Shown here piece by piece: positions 3,635-58,275 of a stretch of DNA of 64,000 bases. Position numbers and translations under genes: made by a program. The stretch covers positions 25,950 to 89,949 of the forward strand of contig DASH01000042.1 in the NCBI GenBank assembly GCA_002503705.1, read 5' to 3'. Origin of the DNA: Candidatus Woesearchaeota archaeon UBA153. Lineage in GTDB: Archaea > Nanobdellota > Nanobdellia > Woesearchaeales > UBA525. The first letter of the stretch is position 1. Each line of letters opens with the position of its first letter. The notes under the pieces are model-generated. The model saw nothing but the letters and a program-made list of their open reading frames with translations, was not told the DNA's origin and ran no database searches.

Positions 3635-4438
3635 ATGGTCGGCTTCGTCTACCATTTACGGCGTTACTTCTTCCTCGCGAAGGAAGAGTGGCTCGGCGTC
3701 CTCATCACCGCGCTGTTCGCGGGCTTCGCGCTCAGCTTCCGCAACTGGGGCGGCGAGACGTTCGACCTCCTCCTCGGCTTGAAGAATTACGGCATCGAGG
3801 TCGTCGCGTTCTTCCTCCTCTTCCTCCTCCACCTCTCCGCGCAGAAGGCGGTCGGCGTCTACTACGGCATCAAAGTCGTGTATGATAAGTACTTGCTCGG
3901 CCTCATGATCGGGTTGTTCGTCACCTTCCTCAGCTTCGGCTATTGGCCGTTGTTCGTGACCGGGACTCTCGCCTTCACCGCAATCCCGAACCTGCGCGTC
4001 GGCAAGTTCCGCGCGACGCTGCCGAAGAAATGGGAGATCGCCCTCATCGCCGCCGCCGGGCCGTTGGCCTCGTTGCTCGCCATGGTGCCGTTGAACGCGT
4101 TGCACATCGGGACTGGCTTGCCGTTCTTCCACCACTTAATCGGCGTCTGCGCGCTCATCGCGATCTACTCGATGCTGCCCATTCCCGTCTTGCCGACGGC
4201 GAACCCGTACGCCGTCTACATGAGCAGGATTGAGGTGTTGGAAGGCAACCTGCCCGGGTTCGACGTCTTCTACCACTCCGCCGGCATCTACTGCTTGCTC
4301 GTCGGGTTCCTCATCGTCTTCTCCGCGATCGCGTGGTTCTTCAGCCCGAGCACGTGGGCGTTGCTCATCGCGATCATTCTCGGCTGGTGGGCGATGCACT
4401 TGTACGCGAAGACGATCGCGGAACACCGGAACTGGTAG
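3635..4438 (+). CDS. polytopic integral membrane protein, function unknown
   Basis: 267 aa with about 7 hydrophobic helices. Confidence 0.5.
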   Translation: MVGFVYHLRRYFFLAKEEWLGVLITALFAGFALSFRNWGGETFDLLLGLKNYGIEVVAFFLLFLLHLSAQKAVGVYYGIKVVYDKYLLGLMIGLFVTFLSFGYWPLFVTGTLAFTAIPNLRVGKFRATLPKKWEIALIAAAGPLASLLAMVPLNALHIGTGLPFFHHLIGVCALIAIYSMLPIPVLPTANPYAVYMSRIEVLEGNLPGFDVFYHSAGIYCLLVGFLIVFSAIAWFFSPSTWALLIAIILGWWAMHLYAKTIAEHRNW

Positions 4439-9597: not shown

Positions 9598-10155
9598 AGA
9601 CTCGCTCCGGTGTGCCGCGAGCTGCAGCACCAGAAGCAAGTCATCTTGGAGACTTCGGCTGCGGTGTTGAAAGAAAAGAAAGCCTCGGTCGCGTTCACCG
9701 TCGGCACGATGATCGAAGTGCCCCGCGCGGCGCTCACCGCCGACGAGATCGCCGCGGAGGCGGCGTTTTTCAGCTTCGGGACAAATGATTTGACGCAGAT
9801 GACGATGGGATTGTCGCGCGACGACGCCGGCAAGTTCATCCCGAGCTACCTGAAAGAAGGCCTGTTCGAGTACGACCCGTTCCAGCACCTCGACGCGACT
9901 GGCGTCGGCCAGCTCGTCACGATGGCCGTGCAGAAAGGTCGCAGCGTCAAGAAAGACCTGAAAGTCGGCATCTGCGGCGACCCGGCAAGCATCACGTTCT
10001 GCCACGCCGCCGGCCTGGACTACGTCTCGTGCAGCCCGTACCGCGTGCCGATCGCGCGCTTGGCGGCTGCGCACGCGGCAATCAACGCGAGAGTGAAGAA
10101 GTCACATTTTTTATCGTTTTTTCCGGAATCATTTTCCGATATGTCGGATGATTAA
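9598..10155 (+). pseudogene. C-terminal 185-aa remnant of pyruvate phosphate dikinase / PEP-utilising enzyme
   Basis: [10 protein letters not shown] and ICGDPAS motifs of PPDK C-terminal TIM barrel; frame opens immediately after a stop at 9595; missing the about 700-aa N-terminus; overlaps next gene by 74 bp. Confidence 0.5.
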
Positions 10156-10897
10156 GAATGAGGGCCCAACCAATCTTTCTGATTTCTTTTTCTGTTGGAA
10201 AATTCTTGTGGAATGTGAGATCTCTATTGAGTGTGCGGCCCGCGTTGTTTATGAGGTACTCTGCATAAGGTGTTTCTTGCATATACTGGAGGATATTATC
10301 CAGGAATGAGTAGTTGGGGTTGTTACTGTAGATGAGCTCTGTCGCCCTGACGAAATATTCTTCCTCCATATCGCTTTTGGCGATGACACCGAGTGCCGCC
10401 TCTTTCTTTCGAAAGAATAAGTGCCCGTATTCGTGGATGAGCCGGTCTGTCACGATGCTGTCGATGGATGTCGGAACTATCGGGCTTGAAGCGTATCGAG
10501 CGAACTCGGCTTCGTTCGTTCCCGGTGTTTGCACAGCTCTTCGAATGAGCGCGCGCATACGTTCGACTTCAGGTTGATAGACGACAATGATGTCGTGTTC
10601 TGCATAGGCGATGCCGTCGGCCTGTATGTGCCGAAACATCAATTCTAGTCTTTTGTCAGATTTTTTGATGACATATGCCGTTCCCACCACGCGCTCTCCG
10701 AAAAGCTCACACTCTTTACTCATTGGCGCATAATTTTTCGTCGTGATATCGAAGATTTGCTGAAAAGAATCGATTCTCCCATCTTGGTTCGCGGTCACAA
10801 CGACCGCTCCCCGAGGAGAACTTGTTTGCTGGGCGAAGCTCTCTCCAGTTGTTGTCAGTAAGCTTGTGATTGCGATGATGGTACAGAGGCGGTTCAT
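10082..10897 (-). CDS. secreted zinc metallopeptidase-like protein (HExxH...E), low GC
   Basis: N-terminal signal peptide [22 protein letters not shown]; HEYGH with downstream Glu; GC clearly below flanks. Confidence 0.55.
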
Positions 10898-54631: not shown

Positions 54632-55597
54632 TCATCGTTGCAACGTCAGCGTGAAGCTCGCGAGCAACGCTTCCAGTTGGAGGTACTCGTCAGCGCCTTC
54701 CACCATGCGGAACTCCGCTTCGCCGCACGACTTCACCAGTTCGAGCTTCTTGCGGTCGTCGACGCCGGACAATTGCCAGCACGCGGCTTGCAACTGCTTG
54801 ATGATGTCCGTGCCGCTCAAGCCGTACTCGAGCATGACGGTGAGCAGGATTTTCTTCGCGCCGGGGAAGTCTCCCTGCTTCGCGTGCTCCAAGAGCTGCG
54901 CGACCTCTTTCGGCTTCGCGTAGCTCGCGATGGAGTAGACGACGTCTTCCGTGATCTTCTTCTCTAAAGCTGCGCACGCTTGCAGCAGGTTCTCGACGCG
55001 GCGCACGTCGCCGTTGCTGACGAGGAATAACGCTTCTTCCGCTTTCGCGTCCACGTGGAGGCCTTCGTCTTTCGCGATCTTCTCGATGATGTGCGCGATC
55101 TCCTCGCGCGCCAACGGCTTGAACCGGAAGACGGTGCATCTGCTCTGGATCGGGTCGATGATCTTGCTGCTGTAGTTGCAGCTGAGGATGAAACGACAGG
55201 TTTGCGTGTAGTTCTCCATCGTGCGGCGCAACGCTTGCTGCGCCTCTTTCGTTAAGGCGTCGCACTCGTCGAGGTAGATGATCTTGAACGGCACGTCGCC
55301 GATCGCTCTCGTGCGCGCGAAGTCCTTGACTTTGTTCCTGACGACGTCGATGCCGCGCTCGTCGCTCGCGTTCAGCTCTAAGAAGTTGCCGCGCCACTCG
55401 TCGCCGTACATCTGCCGCGCGATGACGAGGCTCAACGTTGTCTTGCCGATGCCCGCCGGGCCCGCGAACAAGAGGTGGGGCATGTTGCCTTGCTTGACGA
55501 ACGCCTCGACCTTCGAGACGACGTCCTTCTGCCCTTTGACCTCCTTGAACGTCTTCGGCCGGTACTTCTCAGTCCAGATGCTGCTCTCCCCGATCAT
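54632..55597 (-). CDS. rfcS: replication factor C small subunit
   Basis: EKYRPK, GPAGIGKTT Walker A, DECD, SRC motif region. Confidence 0.9.
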   Translation of the reverse strand: MIGESSIWTEKYRPKTFKEVKGQKDVVSKVEAFVKQGNMPHLLFAGPAGIGKTTLSLVIARQMYGDEWRGNFLELNASDERGIDVVRNKVKDFARTRAIGDVPFKIIYLDECDALTKEAQQALRRTMENYTQTCRFILSCNYSSKIIDPIQSRCTVFRFKPLAREEIAHIIEKIAKDEGLHVDAKAEEALFLVSNGDVRRVENLLQACAALEKKITEDVVYSIASYAKPKEVAQLLEHAKQGDFPGAKKILLTVMLEYGLSGTDIIKQLQAACWQLSGVDDRKKLELVKSCGEAEFRMVEGADEYLQLEALLASFTLTLQR

Positions 55598-55688
55598 GGT
55601 TTCCCGGAATCGGCGAGAGGTTTAAAAAATGGATGGTGGACGTCCATCACATTCACGAGTCTCATTCGTGAGTTTCGCATCGCGTGGT

Positions 55689-56771
55689 TCATACGGTAAC
55701 GGTCGTCTCCGTTCGGGTTTTTCCACCACTTTGCAAATACTGTTGAATGAGTTGTAGGAATTCTTTGGAATCCGCAAAGTAATTCAGGTACGCTTTTCTC
55801 AGTTCTTCCACCGATTTCGCGCCGACGAGCACAACATCCTTGTTCGGATTACGGTTCTGCAATCTTTCAGCTTCTACGTAGTGTTCTGTGGCAATCGGTT
55901 CCTGTTCGAGCGGGTAACCTCGAATGCTGAGTTTTTCATTCCCTTCCGTCACATCGAGCTCGAGGAGGAAGAACTGGAGCTCTTTGATTTTCGGCTCTAT
56001 CGCTTTCAGAGCATCCGACCAGCCCGTCATCTTTGAGATTATCTTCAGATGACTCACTTTCTCCTTGACTCTTTCGTAAAGTTCGACGTCATCGGTCGGC
56101 GTATCGGGAACTGGTGGTTGCCCTTCCATTCTCGCGAATACCGAACTAATTAACTTGAAGAAATCTTTCCATTCTTGCTCTCCTTCGTTGGACTTGATGG
56201 CCTGGTCAGTGAATAAGTCGACGATTTCGATGGAGGTGGCCCACGCGTGCTGTATCTTCGACCTTATTTGCAACTCGACCTGTAGGCCATCGTAGGTTGT
56301 GATTTTGTCGCTTTTGTATTTGTACACTAAATGTATGCCGCGATACCCGTCATTTTTCGGTTCTTTGATATAGTCTTTTTCTCGTACGCGTTTGTGTTTG
56401 AGACCTCTGCTTTTCTTATAGACGTTGCTCAGAGCATACGCTTTTGCTACGTCCTGCATGACTGCCCTGCATCCCGCGATATCTTGCATCTGCGACAGGC
56501 TCATGGATTTTGTCTGCGTCCTCTGTAGCTTTTTCAGTATGGATGGCACTCTCTTGAGTCGTTGGACGACGAGTGCAGAACTATCGATTTTTTTTGATTC
56601 TCTTCTGAGTCTGACTTGAAAGGTATTCATGGGATAGCTATGGGACGACCGCCAATTACTGAGAATGTTCAGCGCGTTATCCGTCTGTTCTTCGGTAGAT
56701 TGCGGATCAGTTAAAATGTGCCCCGCTTTATCTACTTGTGATCTCCCGTACTCGGGTTTTGTCCAGGTCAT
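55689..56771 (-). CDS. RelA/SpoT nucleotidyltransferase-domain protein (small alarmone synthetase / toxSAS-like) with about 170-aa C-terminal domain of unknown function; low GC
   Basis: DIAGCRAV, YRGIHLV and ELQIRSKIQHAWA synthetase motifs; GC about 45% vs about 62% flanks. Confidence 0.65.
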   Translation of the reverse strand: MTWTKPEYGRSQVDKAGHILTDPQSTEEQTDNALNILSNWRSSHSYPMNTFQVRLRRESKKIDSSALVVQRLKRVPSILKKLQRTQTKSMSLSQMQDIAGCRAVMQDVAKAYALSNVYKKSRGLKHKRVREKDYIKEPKNDGYRGIHLVYKYKSDKITTYDGLQVELQIRSKIQHAWATSIEIVDLFTDQAIKSNEGEQEWKDFFKLISSVFARMEGQPPVPDTPTDDVELYERVKEKVSHLKIISKMTGWSDALKAIEPKIKELQFFLLELDVTEGNEKLSIRGYPLEQEPIATEHYVEAERLQNRNPNKDVVLVGAKSVEELRKAYLNYFADSKEFLQLIQQYLQSGGKTRTETTVTV

Positions 56772-56805
56772 GGATGAACGATGACATCAAGGCTTTATAT
56801 ATTTT

Positions 56806-56917
56806 TGCATGCGAAAGTGTTTTACGCATGCAAAGATGCACTATTTATGCATGCGTATATGGATTAGCATGCGGACTCAATCCGCATGCGATAATAATTT
56901 TCGCATGCAGGCCCTCG
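56806..56917. promoter_or_regulatory. array of six GCATGC cores (mostly CGCATGCG palindromes) spaced 17-29 bp, just upstream of RelA/SpoT-domain gene TATA (about 56790-56803)
   Basis: GCATGC at 56806, 56825, 56848, 56866, 56883, 56912. Confidence 0.5.
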
Positions 56918-57082
56918 AGATTAACTCGTTCAAAGTTTGTTCCGATGGCGGCATTCTCTCAGCAAACCCTTCTGAGGAACGCATATGATTTCGTATGAGT
57001 TTTTATTCCTTTCGGGTGATAAGGAATCTTTTTAAGGGGGACTTACCGGGTTTTCTTTCTTCGCAGTGATGGTCGGTCCATA

Positions 57083-57544
57083 GTGTCACAGTTACCTCGT
57101 CCGGACCCGCAGCCGTATGAAGGCGTTCTGCACATTCACCGACCTTCTCCTCGAGCGCCCACTCGCGACTCCCCGCTCCTCGCCGAGCCGGAACCGCTCG
57201 TCCTCTCATTCCAGGCCTCGTTCGGGTATCGCGGCGTCTCCTACTCAGTCAAGTATGGCGATGACATGGCGCGGCCGTACGTCACGGTGGCCACGCGCGG
57301 CTGCGCGGACATGGTCGATTACTTCTCCGTCGTGAAACAGCTGGAACTGCTCGGCAAAGGTTACGAGGACAACCTGGCGCGCACCGACACGCAAGACGGC
57401 ATCCGCGGCGTCATCCGGTTCCACGACGCGCTCTCGCAGAGCGGAATCGAGTCGTTCTTAGGCGAGACTCGGGGCTTGGAGAAACTGAGAAAAGAAGTGA
57501 AGTATTTCGGCAACCTGTACGCGTTCCCGGAAGTGCGCGGTTAA
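57083..57544 (+). CDS. hypothetical protein (start uncertain)
   Basis: 153-aa ORF divergent from the RelA/SpoT islet. Confidence 0.35.
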   Translation: MSQLPRPDPQPYEGVLHIHRPSPRAPTRDSPLLAEPEPLVLSFQASFGYRGVSYSVKYGDDMARPYVTVATRGCADMVDYFSVVKQLELLGKGYEDNLARTDTQDGIRGVIRFHDALSQSGIESFLGETRGLEKLRKEVKYFGNLYAFPEVRG

Positions 57545-57545
57545 G

Positions 57546-57633
57546 GCTGGCGCGGCCAAAGTTATAGTTTTCGTTCTTCAGTGCACGAACGTACTCGCAT
57601 GCACTTGTACGAGGAGATCCGTGCCGCGTCAGC
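57546..57633. repeat. 88-bp intergenic palindromic element, copy B
   Basis: GCTGGCGCGGCCAAAGTTATAGTT ... GTGCCGCGTCAGC starting 2 nt after stop codon. Confidence 0.55.
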
Positions 57634-57663
57634 ACGAGACGAGCCATGCTCGGCGAAGAACTC

Positions 57664-58275
57664 TTACGGTCGTTCCCACGAAACTTGGTAGTACGTCACG
57701 TCGCCTTCCTCGTCGACGATGCCGAGGAGCAGGTGCTTCTTCGTGCTGTGCGCGACCCTGTTCTTTGCGGAGAAGTCGTGCCACGTCAACGATTGGCTCT
57801 CGTGGATCGGGTAGAGAATCCACTTCGCGTGGTCCTCGCCGGGCTTGACGCCGCGCTCGTACACTCGGAAATCCGCGCCGAACTTCAACGCGGTCTTGAC
57901 GATATAGCCGCGGTTGCGCATGTCCCGGAAGACCAAGTATTTCGTCCAGAAGCTCTTCTGCGCCTGCTTGGCTTTTCGGATGAAGGTTTGGATGGGAACT
58001 TCCTTGTTGCGCGGCGTGACGATCTTGAGCTTCTCCTTCTCTGCGAGGTAGAGCGCTTCGTAGAGGCTCAACTGGATTCGGCCGCTGCCGTCGGGTTCGC
58101 CGAGCCTGCTCTGACTGTAGAAGTCTCTCGCGCCGTCGCTGTTCTCCGTCAAGACCTGATCGTGGCCGAGGACTGCAAGGACGACGTCTTTGCGCTTCGG
58201 CTCGTTCGCCGGAGTCGCCGTCACGCTTCCCGTCGTGGTCGTCACGGTCGCTTTCTTCACGCTCTTCTTCGCCAT
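57664..58275 (-). CDS. endA: tRNA-splicing endonuclease subunit (EndA) with Lys/Thr-rich N-terminal extension
   Basis: Catalytic C-terminal domain GADFRVYERG...HAKWIL...HSTKKHLLLGIV. Confidence 0.75.
   Translation of the reverse strand: MAKKSVKKATVTTTTGSVTATPANEPKRKDVVLAVLGHDQVLTENSDGARDFYSQSRLGEPDGSGRIQLSLYEALYLAEKEKLKIVTPRNKEVPIQTFIRKAKQAQKSFWTKYLVFRDMRNRGYIVKTALKFGADFRVYERGVKPGEDHAKWILYPIHESQSLTWHDFSAKNRVAHSTKKHLLLGIVDEEGDVTYYQVSWERP

Follow-up and report, generated by a model that had tools for sequence, protein, structure and literature searches.

A low-GC islet of a Woesearchaeota genome carries a CapRel-type fused toxin-antitoxin gene behind a conserved putative operator

Why should a high-GC archaeal genome carry, in a sharply bounded islet of low GC content, a gene for a RelA/SpoT-type enzyme preceded by a cluster of palindromes? 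The question is raised by positions 55640 to 57082 of a 64,000-nucleotide stretch of Candidatus Woesearchaeota archaeon UBA153 (contig DASH01000042.1), which as a whole is referred to here as the window. An earlier note, made from the sequence alone, proposed for the 360-amino-acid product a (p)ppGpp or (p)ppApp synthetase, a toxic small alarmone synthetase (toxSAS) or an anti-phage effector. We consider it likely that the islet entered a high-GC genome of the Woesearchaeota (DPANN) by horizontal transfer, as a self-contained antiviral cassette that consists of a fused CapRel gene and an operator for a host regulator.

The gene is an intact open reading frame (ORF) of 360 codons on the minus strand (55689-56771). 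The protein was searched against the Pfam, PADLOC and NCBIfam profiles and, with phmmer, against all PDB sequences, and a structural model was compared with the PDB using Foldseek. The Pfam RelA_SpoT profile matches residues 70-179 (E 6.2e-19, 68.8 bits, cut-off 27) and the translation holds the motifs DIAGCRAV, YRGIHLV and ELQIRSKIQHAWA, as expected from the synthetase domain first noticed in the sequence. PADLOC profile PDC-S33 is matched at E 7.4e-123 and 408 bits, with residues 1-347 aligned onto profile positions 1-343 of 349. The best phmmer match in the PDB is CapRelSJ46 (7ZTB/9ERV; E 1.9e-42), onto residues 14-370 of 373 of which residues 7-346 align; this protein of the Salmonella prophage SJ46, a toxSAS toxin fused to its antitoxin, pyrophosphorylates tRNA and acts as a sensor of a phage capsid protein. 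RelQ, RelP and RelA are matched in the catalytic core only, at E 1e-11 or weaker, and no FaRel2 chain is among the PDB sequence matches at E<=1. With full-length matches to both CapRelSJ46 and PDC-S33, the proposal of a toxSAS-like anti-phage effector is the one that gains support.

For an AlphaFold2 model built from 55 homologues (predicted local distance difference test 89.5, predicted template-modelling (TM) score 0.87), Foldseek ranks the three CapRel chains of the PDB first (E 5.6e-24 to 1.2e-22, 356-362 columns, TM score 0.65-0.71) and housekeeping small alarmone synthetase (SAS) enzymes below them, with approximately 180 columns. The root-mean-square deviation between model and CapRel is approximately 10 A, which would fit a different relative position of the two domains. 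The C-terminal domain of about 170 residues, which had been described as unrelated, is homologous to the CapRel antitoxin region, as can be seen from the phmmer alignment reaching residue 346, the 356 columns aligned by Foldseek and the YXXY motif. In the model this part runs as helices (199-254), three strands, a helix, one more strand and C-terminal helices. In the phmmer alignment R71, R102, Y143, Y328 and Y331 correspond to R79, R116, Y155, Y352 and Y355 of CapRelSJ46; R71, R102 and Y143 are invariant across the 55 homologues, and so are Y328, N330, Y331 and F332. The roles of the arginines and the G-loop tyrosine in ATP binding and catalysis, and that of the YXXY motif, have been described (PMC9712102, PMC11782079), and mutation of YXXY turns CapRelSJ46 constitutively toxic (PMC9712102). 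On every sequence-level criterion examined the protein is a fused CapRel, and because its C-terminal half is homologous to the CapRel antitoxin, the gene is expected to be a self-neutralised toxin-antitoxin that needs no antitoxin from a neighbouring gene. Its parts are as follows.

55689-56771, minus strand: CapRel-type fused toxin-antitoxin gene, 360 amino acids (PADLOC PDC-S33, phmmer, AlphaFold2/Foldseek).
56202-56585, minus strand: toxSYNTH catalytic core, residues 63-190, with R71, R102 and the G-loop Y143 (Pfam, CapRelSJ46 alignment).
55731-56201, minus strand: C-terminal antitoxin/sensor region, residues 191-347, with anchor helices and a pseudo-zinc-finger domain (pseudo-ZFD, approximately residues 255-318), collinear with the CapRelSJ46 C-terminus.
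55779-55790, minus strand: YXXY autoinhibition motif Y328-L-N-Y331, aligned to CapRelSJ46 Y352-P-N-Y355.

The mechanism of CapRel, comprising autoinhibition, a viral trigger and pyrophosphorylation of the tRNA CCA end, is known from bacterial systems (PMC9712102, PMC11782079, 10.1101/2021.04.30.441581). If it applies here, the N-terminal toxSYNTH domain would be a tRNA pyrophosphokinase held inactive in cis by the C-terminal pseudo-zinc-finger antitoxin, with the YXXY motif plugging the ATP site. By analogy, a viral protein (the capsid protein in the bacterial paradigm) would bind the C-terminal domain and open the enzyme, which would then move pyrophosphate from ATP to the 3'-CCA ends of tRNA; translation would stop and the infection would be aborted. 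A role of this kind in defence fits the context of the homologues, which occur in defence islands and on viral contigs.

The main alternative for the enzyme itself is that it makes an alarmone and acts on nucleotide pools and not on tRNA, either as a housekeeping SAS producing (p)ppGpp or as a toxSAS of the FaRel/Tas1 type producing (pp)pApp. The catalytic core does match structures and models of RelQ, RelP and YjbM, and a substrate cannot be read from sequence with certainty. However, the score with the NCBIfam GTP-diphosphokinase equivalogs is 68.5 bits where 320 are required, and an alignment over the full length, antitoxin domain and YXXY included, is obtained with CapRelSJ46 alone. The CapRel subfamily members that have been tested inhibit translation through tRNA CCA pyrophosphorylation (10.1101/2021.04.30.441581; PMC11782079), the toxSYNTH domain has a net charge of approximately +13, which is compatible with binding of tRNA and consistent with nucleic-acid binding in general, and the homologues are found in defence islands, as described below. 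RelQ and RelP (YjbM/YwaC) share the fold of the catalytic core (TM score to the target approximately 0.7 over approximately 180 residues), but they are oligomeric (p)ppGpp synthetases without the C-terminal antitoxin domain, the additional 170 residues of which are present here. Housekeeping SAS enzymes are stand-alone catalytic domains of approximately 200-230 residues, as opposed to 360 in this protein. We therefore regard the (p)ppGpp or (p)ppApp product proposed in the earlier note as improbable; by homology, the product is likely to be pyrophosphorylated tRNA.

The gene differs from its surroundings in composition. In 300-nt windows the GC content is 0.43-0.49 from approximately 55550 to 57050 and approximately 0.60 on both sides, and the CapRel gene is the lowest-GC 1083-nt window of the 64 kb (0.467, z = -3.8, against a mean of 0.602). 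Its GC content at third codon positions (GC3) is 0.55, compared with 0.75-0.91 for ten neighbouring genes. The non-coding flanks of the islet have a GC content of 0.41-0.51, and it is back to 0.62 at 57061, so the drop and the return that had been reported are both present.

55630-57060, no strand assigned: low-GC islet, taken as the whole acquired cassette (terminator, gene, promoter, operator array and approximately 150 bp of AT-rich non-coding DNA).
56910-57060, no strand assigned: AT-rich non-coding tail of the islet (GC 0.42).

The genomic context also sets the gene apart. The 80 best relatives of the adjoining rfcS gene (66-79% identity) come from Woesearchaeota/Nanoarchaeia metagenome bins, which makes the host a DPANN archaeon of unusually high GC content, and a CapRel gene is near rfcS in none of these 80 loci. 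Here and below, comparison loci (L-numbers) cover approximately 10 kb per genome around homologues of CapRel or relatives of rfcS. The CapRel protein has 1687 detectable relatives, of which the top 60 or so clusters (56-73% identity) belong, where named, to Woesearchaeota, Micrarchaeota or Nanoarchaeota, followed by bacteria of the Candidate Phyla Radiation at approximately 50%; 56 homologues lie on IMG/VR viral contigs. The statement that such genes are rare in archaea is thus only partly right, given these dozens of clusters in DPANN metagenome bins. Among the closer homologues, that in L219 lies beside a DDE_Tnp_1 transposase and an MmeI-like restriction-modification enzyme and that in L233 adjoins AbiJ-like and DpnI genes, whilst that in L227 is alone inside the exosome superoperon and that in L229 sits between a RecJ/Cdc45-like gene and the gene for ribosomal protein S3Ae, with a decayed transposase remnant present. 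The close homologues have a GC3 of 0.14-0.26, and the value of 0.55 in the window lies between theirs and that of the host, which suggests a gene that is foreign but partly ameliorated. Taken together, the GC3 gap, the absence of the gene from the 80 rfcS loci and the homologues beside transposases and restriction-modification, GmrSD and AbiJ/DpnI genes make horizontal acquisition of a mobile defence gene well supported, as the earlier note had proposed.

Several observations on these contexts can be added. In three Woesearchaeota contigs, L221 (5064-7160), L223 (5172-7244) and L228 (5070-7106), genes for an EcoRI-like adenine methylase and a type IV restriction enzyme (GmrSD/HNH) accompany the CapRel homologue. 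A transposase gene lies upstream of the trio, which looks like a small mobile defence island. The remnant in L229 (3543-3873, minus strand) is an internally deleted Mutator/IS256-like transposase of which the N-terminal 69 and C-terminal 37 amino acids are left, with a weak SWIM zinc-finger match; L223 and L228 have an intact copy of this transposase adjoining the array, and the remnant shows decay of the transposase after insertion of the cassette.

The ends of the insertion are less sharply defined. The nearest rfcS relative, L004 (79% identical), has a different upstream neighbourhood, so that comparison with an empty site does not define exact boundaries. In most of the 80 related loci a PRC-barrel gene sits upstream of rfcS. 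It is directly upstream and on the same strand in most Woesearchaeota (L005-L082), and in this genome (53242-55597) and in L004 it is downstream of rfcS on the opposite strand. As the shift is common to the window and L004, a local rearrangement would have preceded or accompanied the CapRel insertion. There is no tRNA gene in the window, and no credible Rfam hit in 55000-58000, that could have served as an integration site or a regulator, and a search for flanking direct repeats as insertion ends gave only short pairs at chance level. The AT-rich tail is possibly a remnant of donor DNA; neither tblastx nor blastn matches it to any of the comparison loci, and it contains no tRNA and nothing recognised by Rfam. 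A donor-gene or transposase remnant was also sought in 56900-57270 and rejected, as tblastx, blastn and tblastn were all empty.

The second part of the question concerns the palindromes. Six GCATGC cores begin at 56807, 56826, 56849, 56867, 56884 and 56903 (spacing 19, 23, 18, 17 and 19 nt), directly upstream of the TATA box of the gene as first reported. They fall within 102 nt (56807-56908), compared with 13 in the rest of the 64 kb (Poisson P approximately 1e-13 for six or more). Other details of the first description need amending. Of the six supposed palindromes of one octamer only 56883-56890 is a full CGCATGCG, the others being T/A/C-GCATGC-G/A; the spacing, given as about two helical turns, is 1.6-2.2 turns and not strictly in phase; and the cores are not six equivalent units, as they pair into three inverted repeats at -137/-118, -101/-83 and -60/-41 from the ATG.

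56806-56832, no strand assigned: proximal dyad TGCATGCG-N11-CGCATGCA, cores at -41 and -60; its end bases run into the B recognition element (BRE).
56848-56873, no strand assigned: middle pair, cores at -83 and -101; the spacer is 10 nt and the dyad symmetry less perfect.
56883-56909, no strand assigned: distal dyad CGCATGCG-N11-CGCATGCA, cores at -118 and -137.
56794-56802, minus strand: TATA box ATATATAAA at -31 to -23 from the ATG (sequence reading).

With the TATA box at this distance, transcription would start at or next to the ATG and give a leaderless mRNA, so the gene appears to have its own leaderless archaeal promoter with BRE and TATA box, bracketed by three dyads as putative regulator binding sites. 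A scan for bacterial sigma-70 promoters found no sites, as expected in an archaeon.

Whether the array is a genuine operator was examined in seven independent promoters of close homologues (67-73% protein identity, locus GC 28-44%), anchored on the true start codon. A proximal dyad, TTGCATGC-N12-GCATGCAA, is present in 7/7. It lies at -58 to -60/-40 to -41 in L219, L221, L223, L225, L227 and L228 and 7 nt further upstream in L229, and in each promoter an A-rich BRE and a TATA box follow it directly. A distal pair is present in five of the seven, at -114/-96 in four and at -121/-103 in L229, and in most of the promoters the stretch from TATA box to ATG holds a complete or partial CATGC site. 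The spacers within pairs differ fully across homologues and the cores are invariant, which amounts to a phylogenetic footprint; nucleotide similarity between the window and the homologue loci extends through the gene into the proximal pair and then ends. Three comparison sets, namely the Woesearchaeota rfcS loci (842 kb), the viral loci (525 kb) and the surroundings of distant CapRel homologues (406 kb), contain no instance of the pair GCATGC-N10-15-GCATGC, and within the loci of close homologues the paired motif is found only upstream of CapRel. The operator is not present in homologues at 63%, 60% and 56% identity, and no arrays were found upstream of distant homologues (<=55% identity, 132 loci). 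A dyad held in position in seven contexts, with none elsewhere in approximately 1.8 Mb, argues for a real operator specific to the cassette. The array is thus a genuine cis-element, carried along with this sub-clade of the gene.

Some further sequences came to light around these promoters. The starts of the homologues in L223 (4001-4078) and L225 (4001-4042) have been called too far upstream, giving products of 399 and 367 amino acids; the extra N-terminal stretch falls in the GCATGC operator region, and the called ATG of L225 overlaps a GCATGC core (ATGCATGC). In L234 (approximately 3850-4000) a 56%-identical homologue lacks GCATGC and is preceded by two copies of AACCGCGCAAAA(G/T)AGT, with a TATA-like box after each, which may be an analogous duplicated promoter/operator with another recognition sequence. 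The dyad was also considered as a viral operator and rejected: in a scan of IMG/VR, TTGCATGC-N12-13-GCATGCAAA was matched seven times, in no case with a TATA box or a CapRel gene after it, and the matches look like chance or unrelated repeats. The operator scan also picked up a tandem GCATGCAAT x3 in L237 and L243, related IMG/VR viral contigs, which is unrelated to CapRel.

Archaeal repressors typically block the recruitment of transcription factor B (TFB) and TATA-binding protein, or of RNA polymerase, near the BRE, the TATA box or the start site. Since the proximal core ends two bases into the BRE, and the relatives have a site between the TATA box and the start, repression is favoured, with the dyads as candidate binding sites of a sequence-specific multimeric repressor. 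The regulator is most likely a Woesearchaeota host factor.

Several points weigh against this interpretation of the islet and its operator. The copy in the window has no site downstream of the TATA box, which is the site that most favours repression. TFB could just as well be recruited, and the promoter so activated, by a site immediately before the BRE; with the downstream site lost and upstream pairs gained in this copy, activation of this kind is possible. No regulator gene is linked to CapRel in any homologue context, and, with approximately 10 kb examined per comparison genome, a small host regulon is possible too. As regards the antiviral function, identity to CapRelSJ46 is only 28-29%, and we know of no virus of this host. 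Finally, among close homologues identity is 0.73 in the pseudo-ZFD and 0.76 in toxSYNTH, and with the former hardly more variable than the latter the signature of an arms race is weak.

If no regulator travels with the gene, the CapRel protein might itself bind the dyads, as type II antitoxins bind their operators, which would make expression self-limiting in any host. The operator does move with the gene through seven unrelated contexts, a portability that binding by CapRel would explain, the dyad is nowhere else in the DNA examined, and the topology of the antitoxin domain is zinc-finger-like (PMC9712102). Against this, CapRelSJ46 is described as monomeric and neither DNA binding nor autoregulation is reported for it (PMC9712102, PMC11782079). 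The protein in the window has no DNA-binding Pfam domain, in the operator-bearing clade the pseudo-ZFD carries a net negative charge (-5.3), a comparison of operator-bearing with operator-less homologues gave no clade-specific basic patch or surface, and the operator is missing from homologues of 56-63% identity in spite of a conserved protein. Self-binding is on this evidence unlikely. Only tentatively can a wider role be proposed, in which the dyads are a portable, cassette-specific switch bound either by CapRel or by an infection-responsive host or viral factor. Two layers of control, transcriptional and allosteric, would then act on a suicide enzyme that inactivates tRNA. Capsid-sensing toxSAS immunity would have its first regulated and its first archaeal example, which would spread as a unit of promoter, operator and gene among Woesearchaeota of 28%-60% GC.

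The array could also belong to a mobile element, either as subterminal repeats bound by a transposase or as a hairpin-forming recombination site. Transposases of two families start 10-110 bp from the array, divergently, in L219, L221, L223 and L228, with the decayed copy in L229, and each dyad folds as a stable hairpin or cruciform (z -3.5 to -6). The potential for hairpins follows, however, from the dyads being inverted repeats, and the stems never vary, so that no compensatory change backs a constraint on structure alone. As a terminal inverted repeat of the adjacent transposase the array was rejected, as the motif is missing at the other end of these genes and the two transposase families that flank it are unrelated; in L225, L227 and the window the array keeps its fixed distance from TATA box and ATG with no transposase present. 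A function in mobility is accordingly very improbable, and an operator is the preferred reading.

Lastly, the gene might be a decaying, non-functional passenger and the array its relic. An intermediate GC3 of 0.55 implies residence for long enough for partial amelioration, and the copy in the window no longer has a site downstream of its TATA box. By contrast, all 360 codons are intact with every catalytic and autoinhibitory residue conserved, the array has grown to three dyads instead of eroding, and the identical gene occurs in additional, independently assembled contigs, which together make a passenger scarcely credible.

A functional cassette can be set beside the systems already described. 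It shares with CapRelSJ46 the single ORF (approximately 360-373 amino acids), the collinearity over residues 7-346, the fold, the R/R/Y residues, the YXXY motif and relatives in mobile elements and defence islands. It differs in its DPANN host, in its predicted leaderless BRE/TATA promoter and in having YLNY where SJ46 has YPNY. No paired-palindrome operator like that found here is reported for bacterial CapRel (PMC9712102, PMC11782079). The bicistronic toxSAS systems (CapRel/ATcapRel, PhRel/ATphRel, FaRel2/ATfaRel2) have the same toxSYNTH toxin and a YXXY antitoxin fold that blocks the ATP site (PMC11782079), whereas toxin and antitoxin are one polypeptide here. Type II toxin-antitoxin operators likewise have dyad repeats overlapping the toxin-antitoxin promoter, but the CapRel protein has no identifiable DNA-binding domain. 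By its full-length hidden Markov model match the protein is a member of PDC-S33, a 'guilt-by-embedding' candidate of PADLOC for which no mention was found in the literature searched and whose homology to CapRel is shown here through this member only.

In the RelA/SpoT homologue surveys consulted, capRel appears in bacterial phyla only. The literature searches turned up no description of an archaeal CapRel, and CapRel goes unmentioned in a survey of archaeal immunity from 2026. A search of titles and abstracts for a GCATGC-binding archaeal factor gave nothing relevant, and as far as the literature searches went the conserved operator is apparently undescribed. CapRel is one of the few defence systems with a trigger known at atomic level and has been studied only in bacteria and phages. 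An archaeal clade with every functional residue intact would extend abortive infection by tRNA pyrophosphorylation to DPANN, whose viruses are almost unknown, and ties the uncharacterised candidate PDC-S33 to a defined mechanism. The operator offers a handle on how a potentially lethal single-gene defence stays quiet after transfer, in the form of a 27-30 bp probe for the regulator.

Downstream of the gene, the islet ends close to the essential rfcS.

55624-55648, minus strand: terminator-like hairpin (GATGGACGTCCACCATC) followed by a T6 run (CATTTTTTAA), 41 nt past the stop codon.

The T-run overlaps the TATA box of rfcS, which lies 91 bp downstream on the same strand; the acquired gene and rfcS could interfere with each other, or transcription could read through between them.

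On the other side of the islet, the neighbouring gene had been taken to start at 57083. Gene callers place its start at 57266 (92 amino acids), and no frame in 57083-57265 has the codon-position GC signature of the host. The start is therefore probably at 57266 and the 153-amino-acid ORF from 57083 an over-extension. This ORF was considered as an antitoxin and rejected, as it has a host-like GC3 of 0.82, has no Pfam, PADLOC or NCBIfam hit and is missing from every homologue locus. No neighbours are common to the window and ten homologue contexts, hence no separate cognate antitoxin gene is seen. Between the islet and the 92-amino-acid gene there are approximately 200 bp of host-like GC (0.62; 57061-57265), which could be a 5' untranslated region or a decayed host gene.

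The second-lowest GC spot of the window (1-kb bin, 0.487) is at 10082-10897 on the minus strand. The 271-amino-acid ORF at this spot has an N-terminus resembling a signal peptide, gives no significant hit in Pfam and may be another acquired gene.

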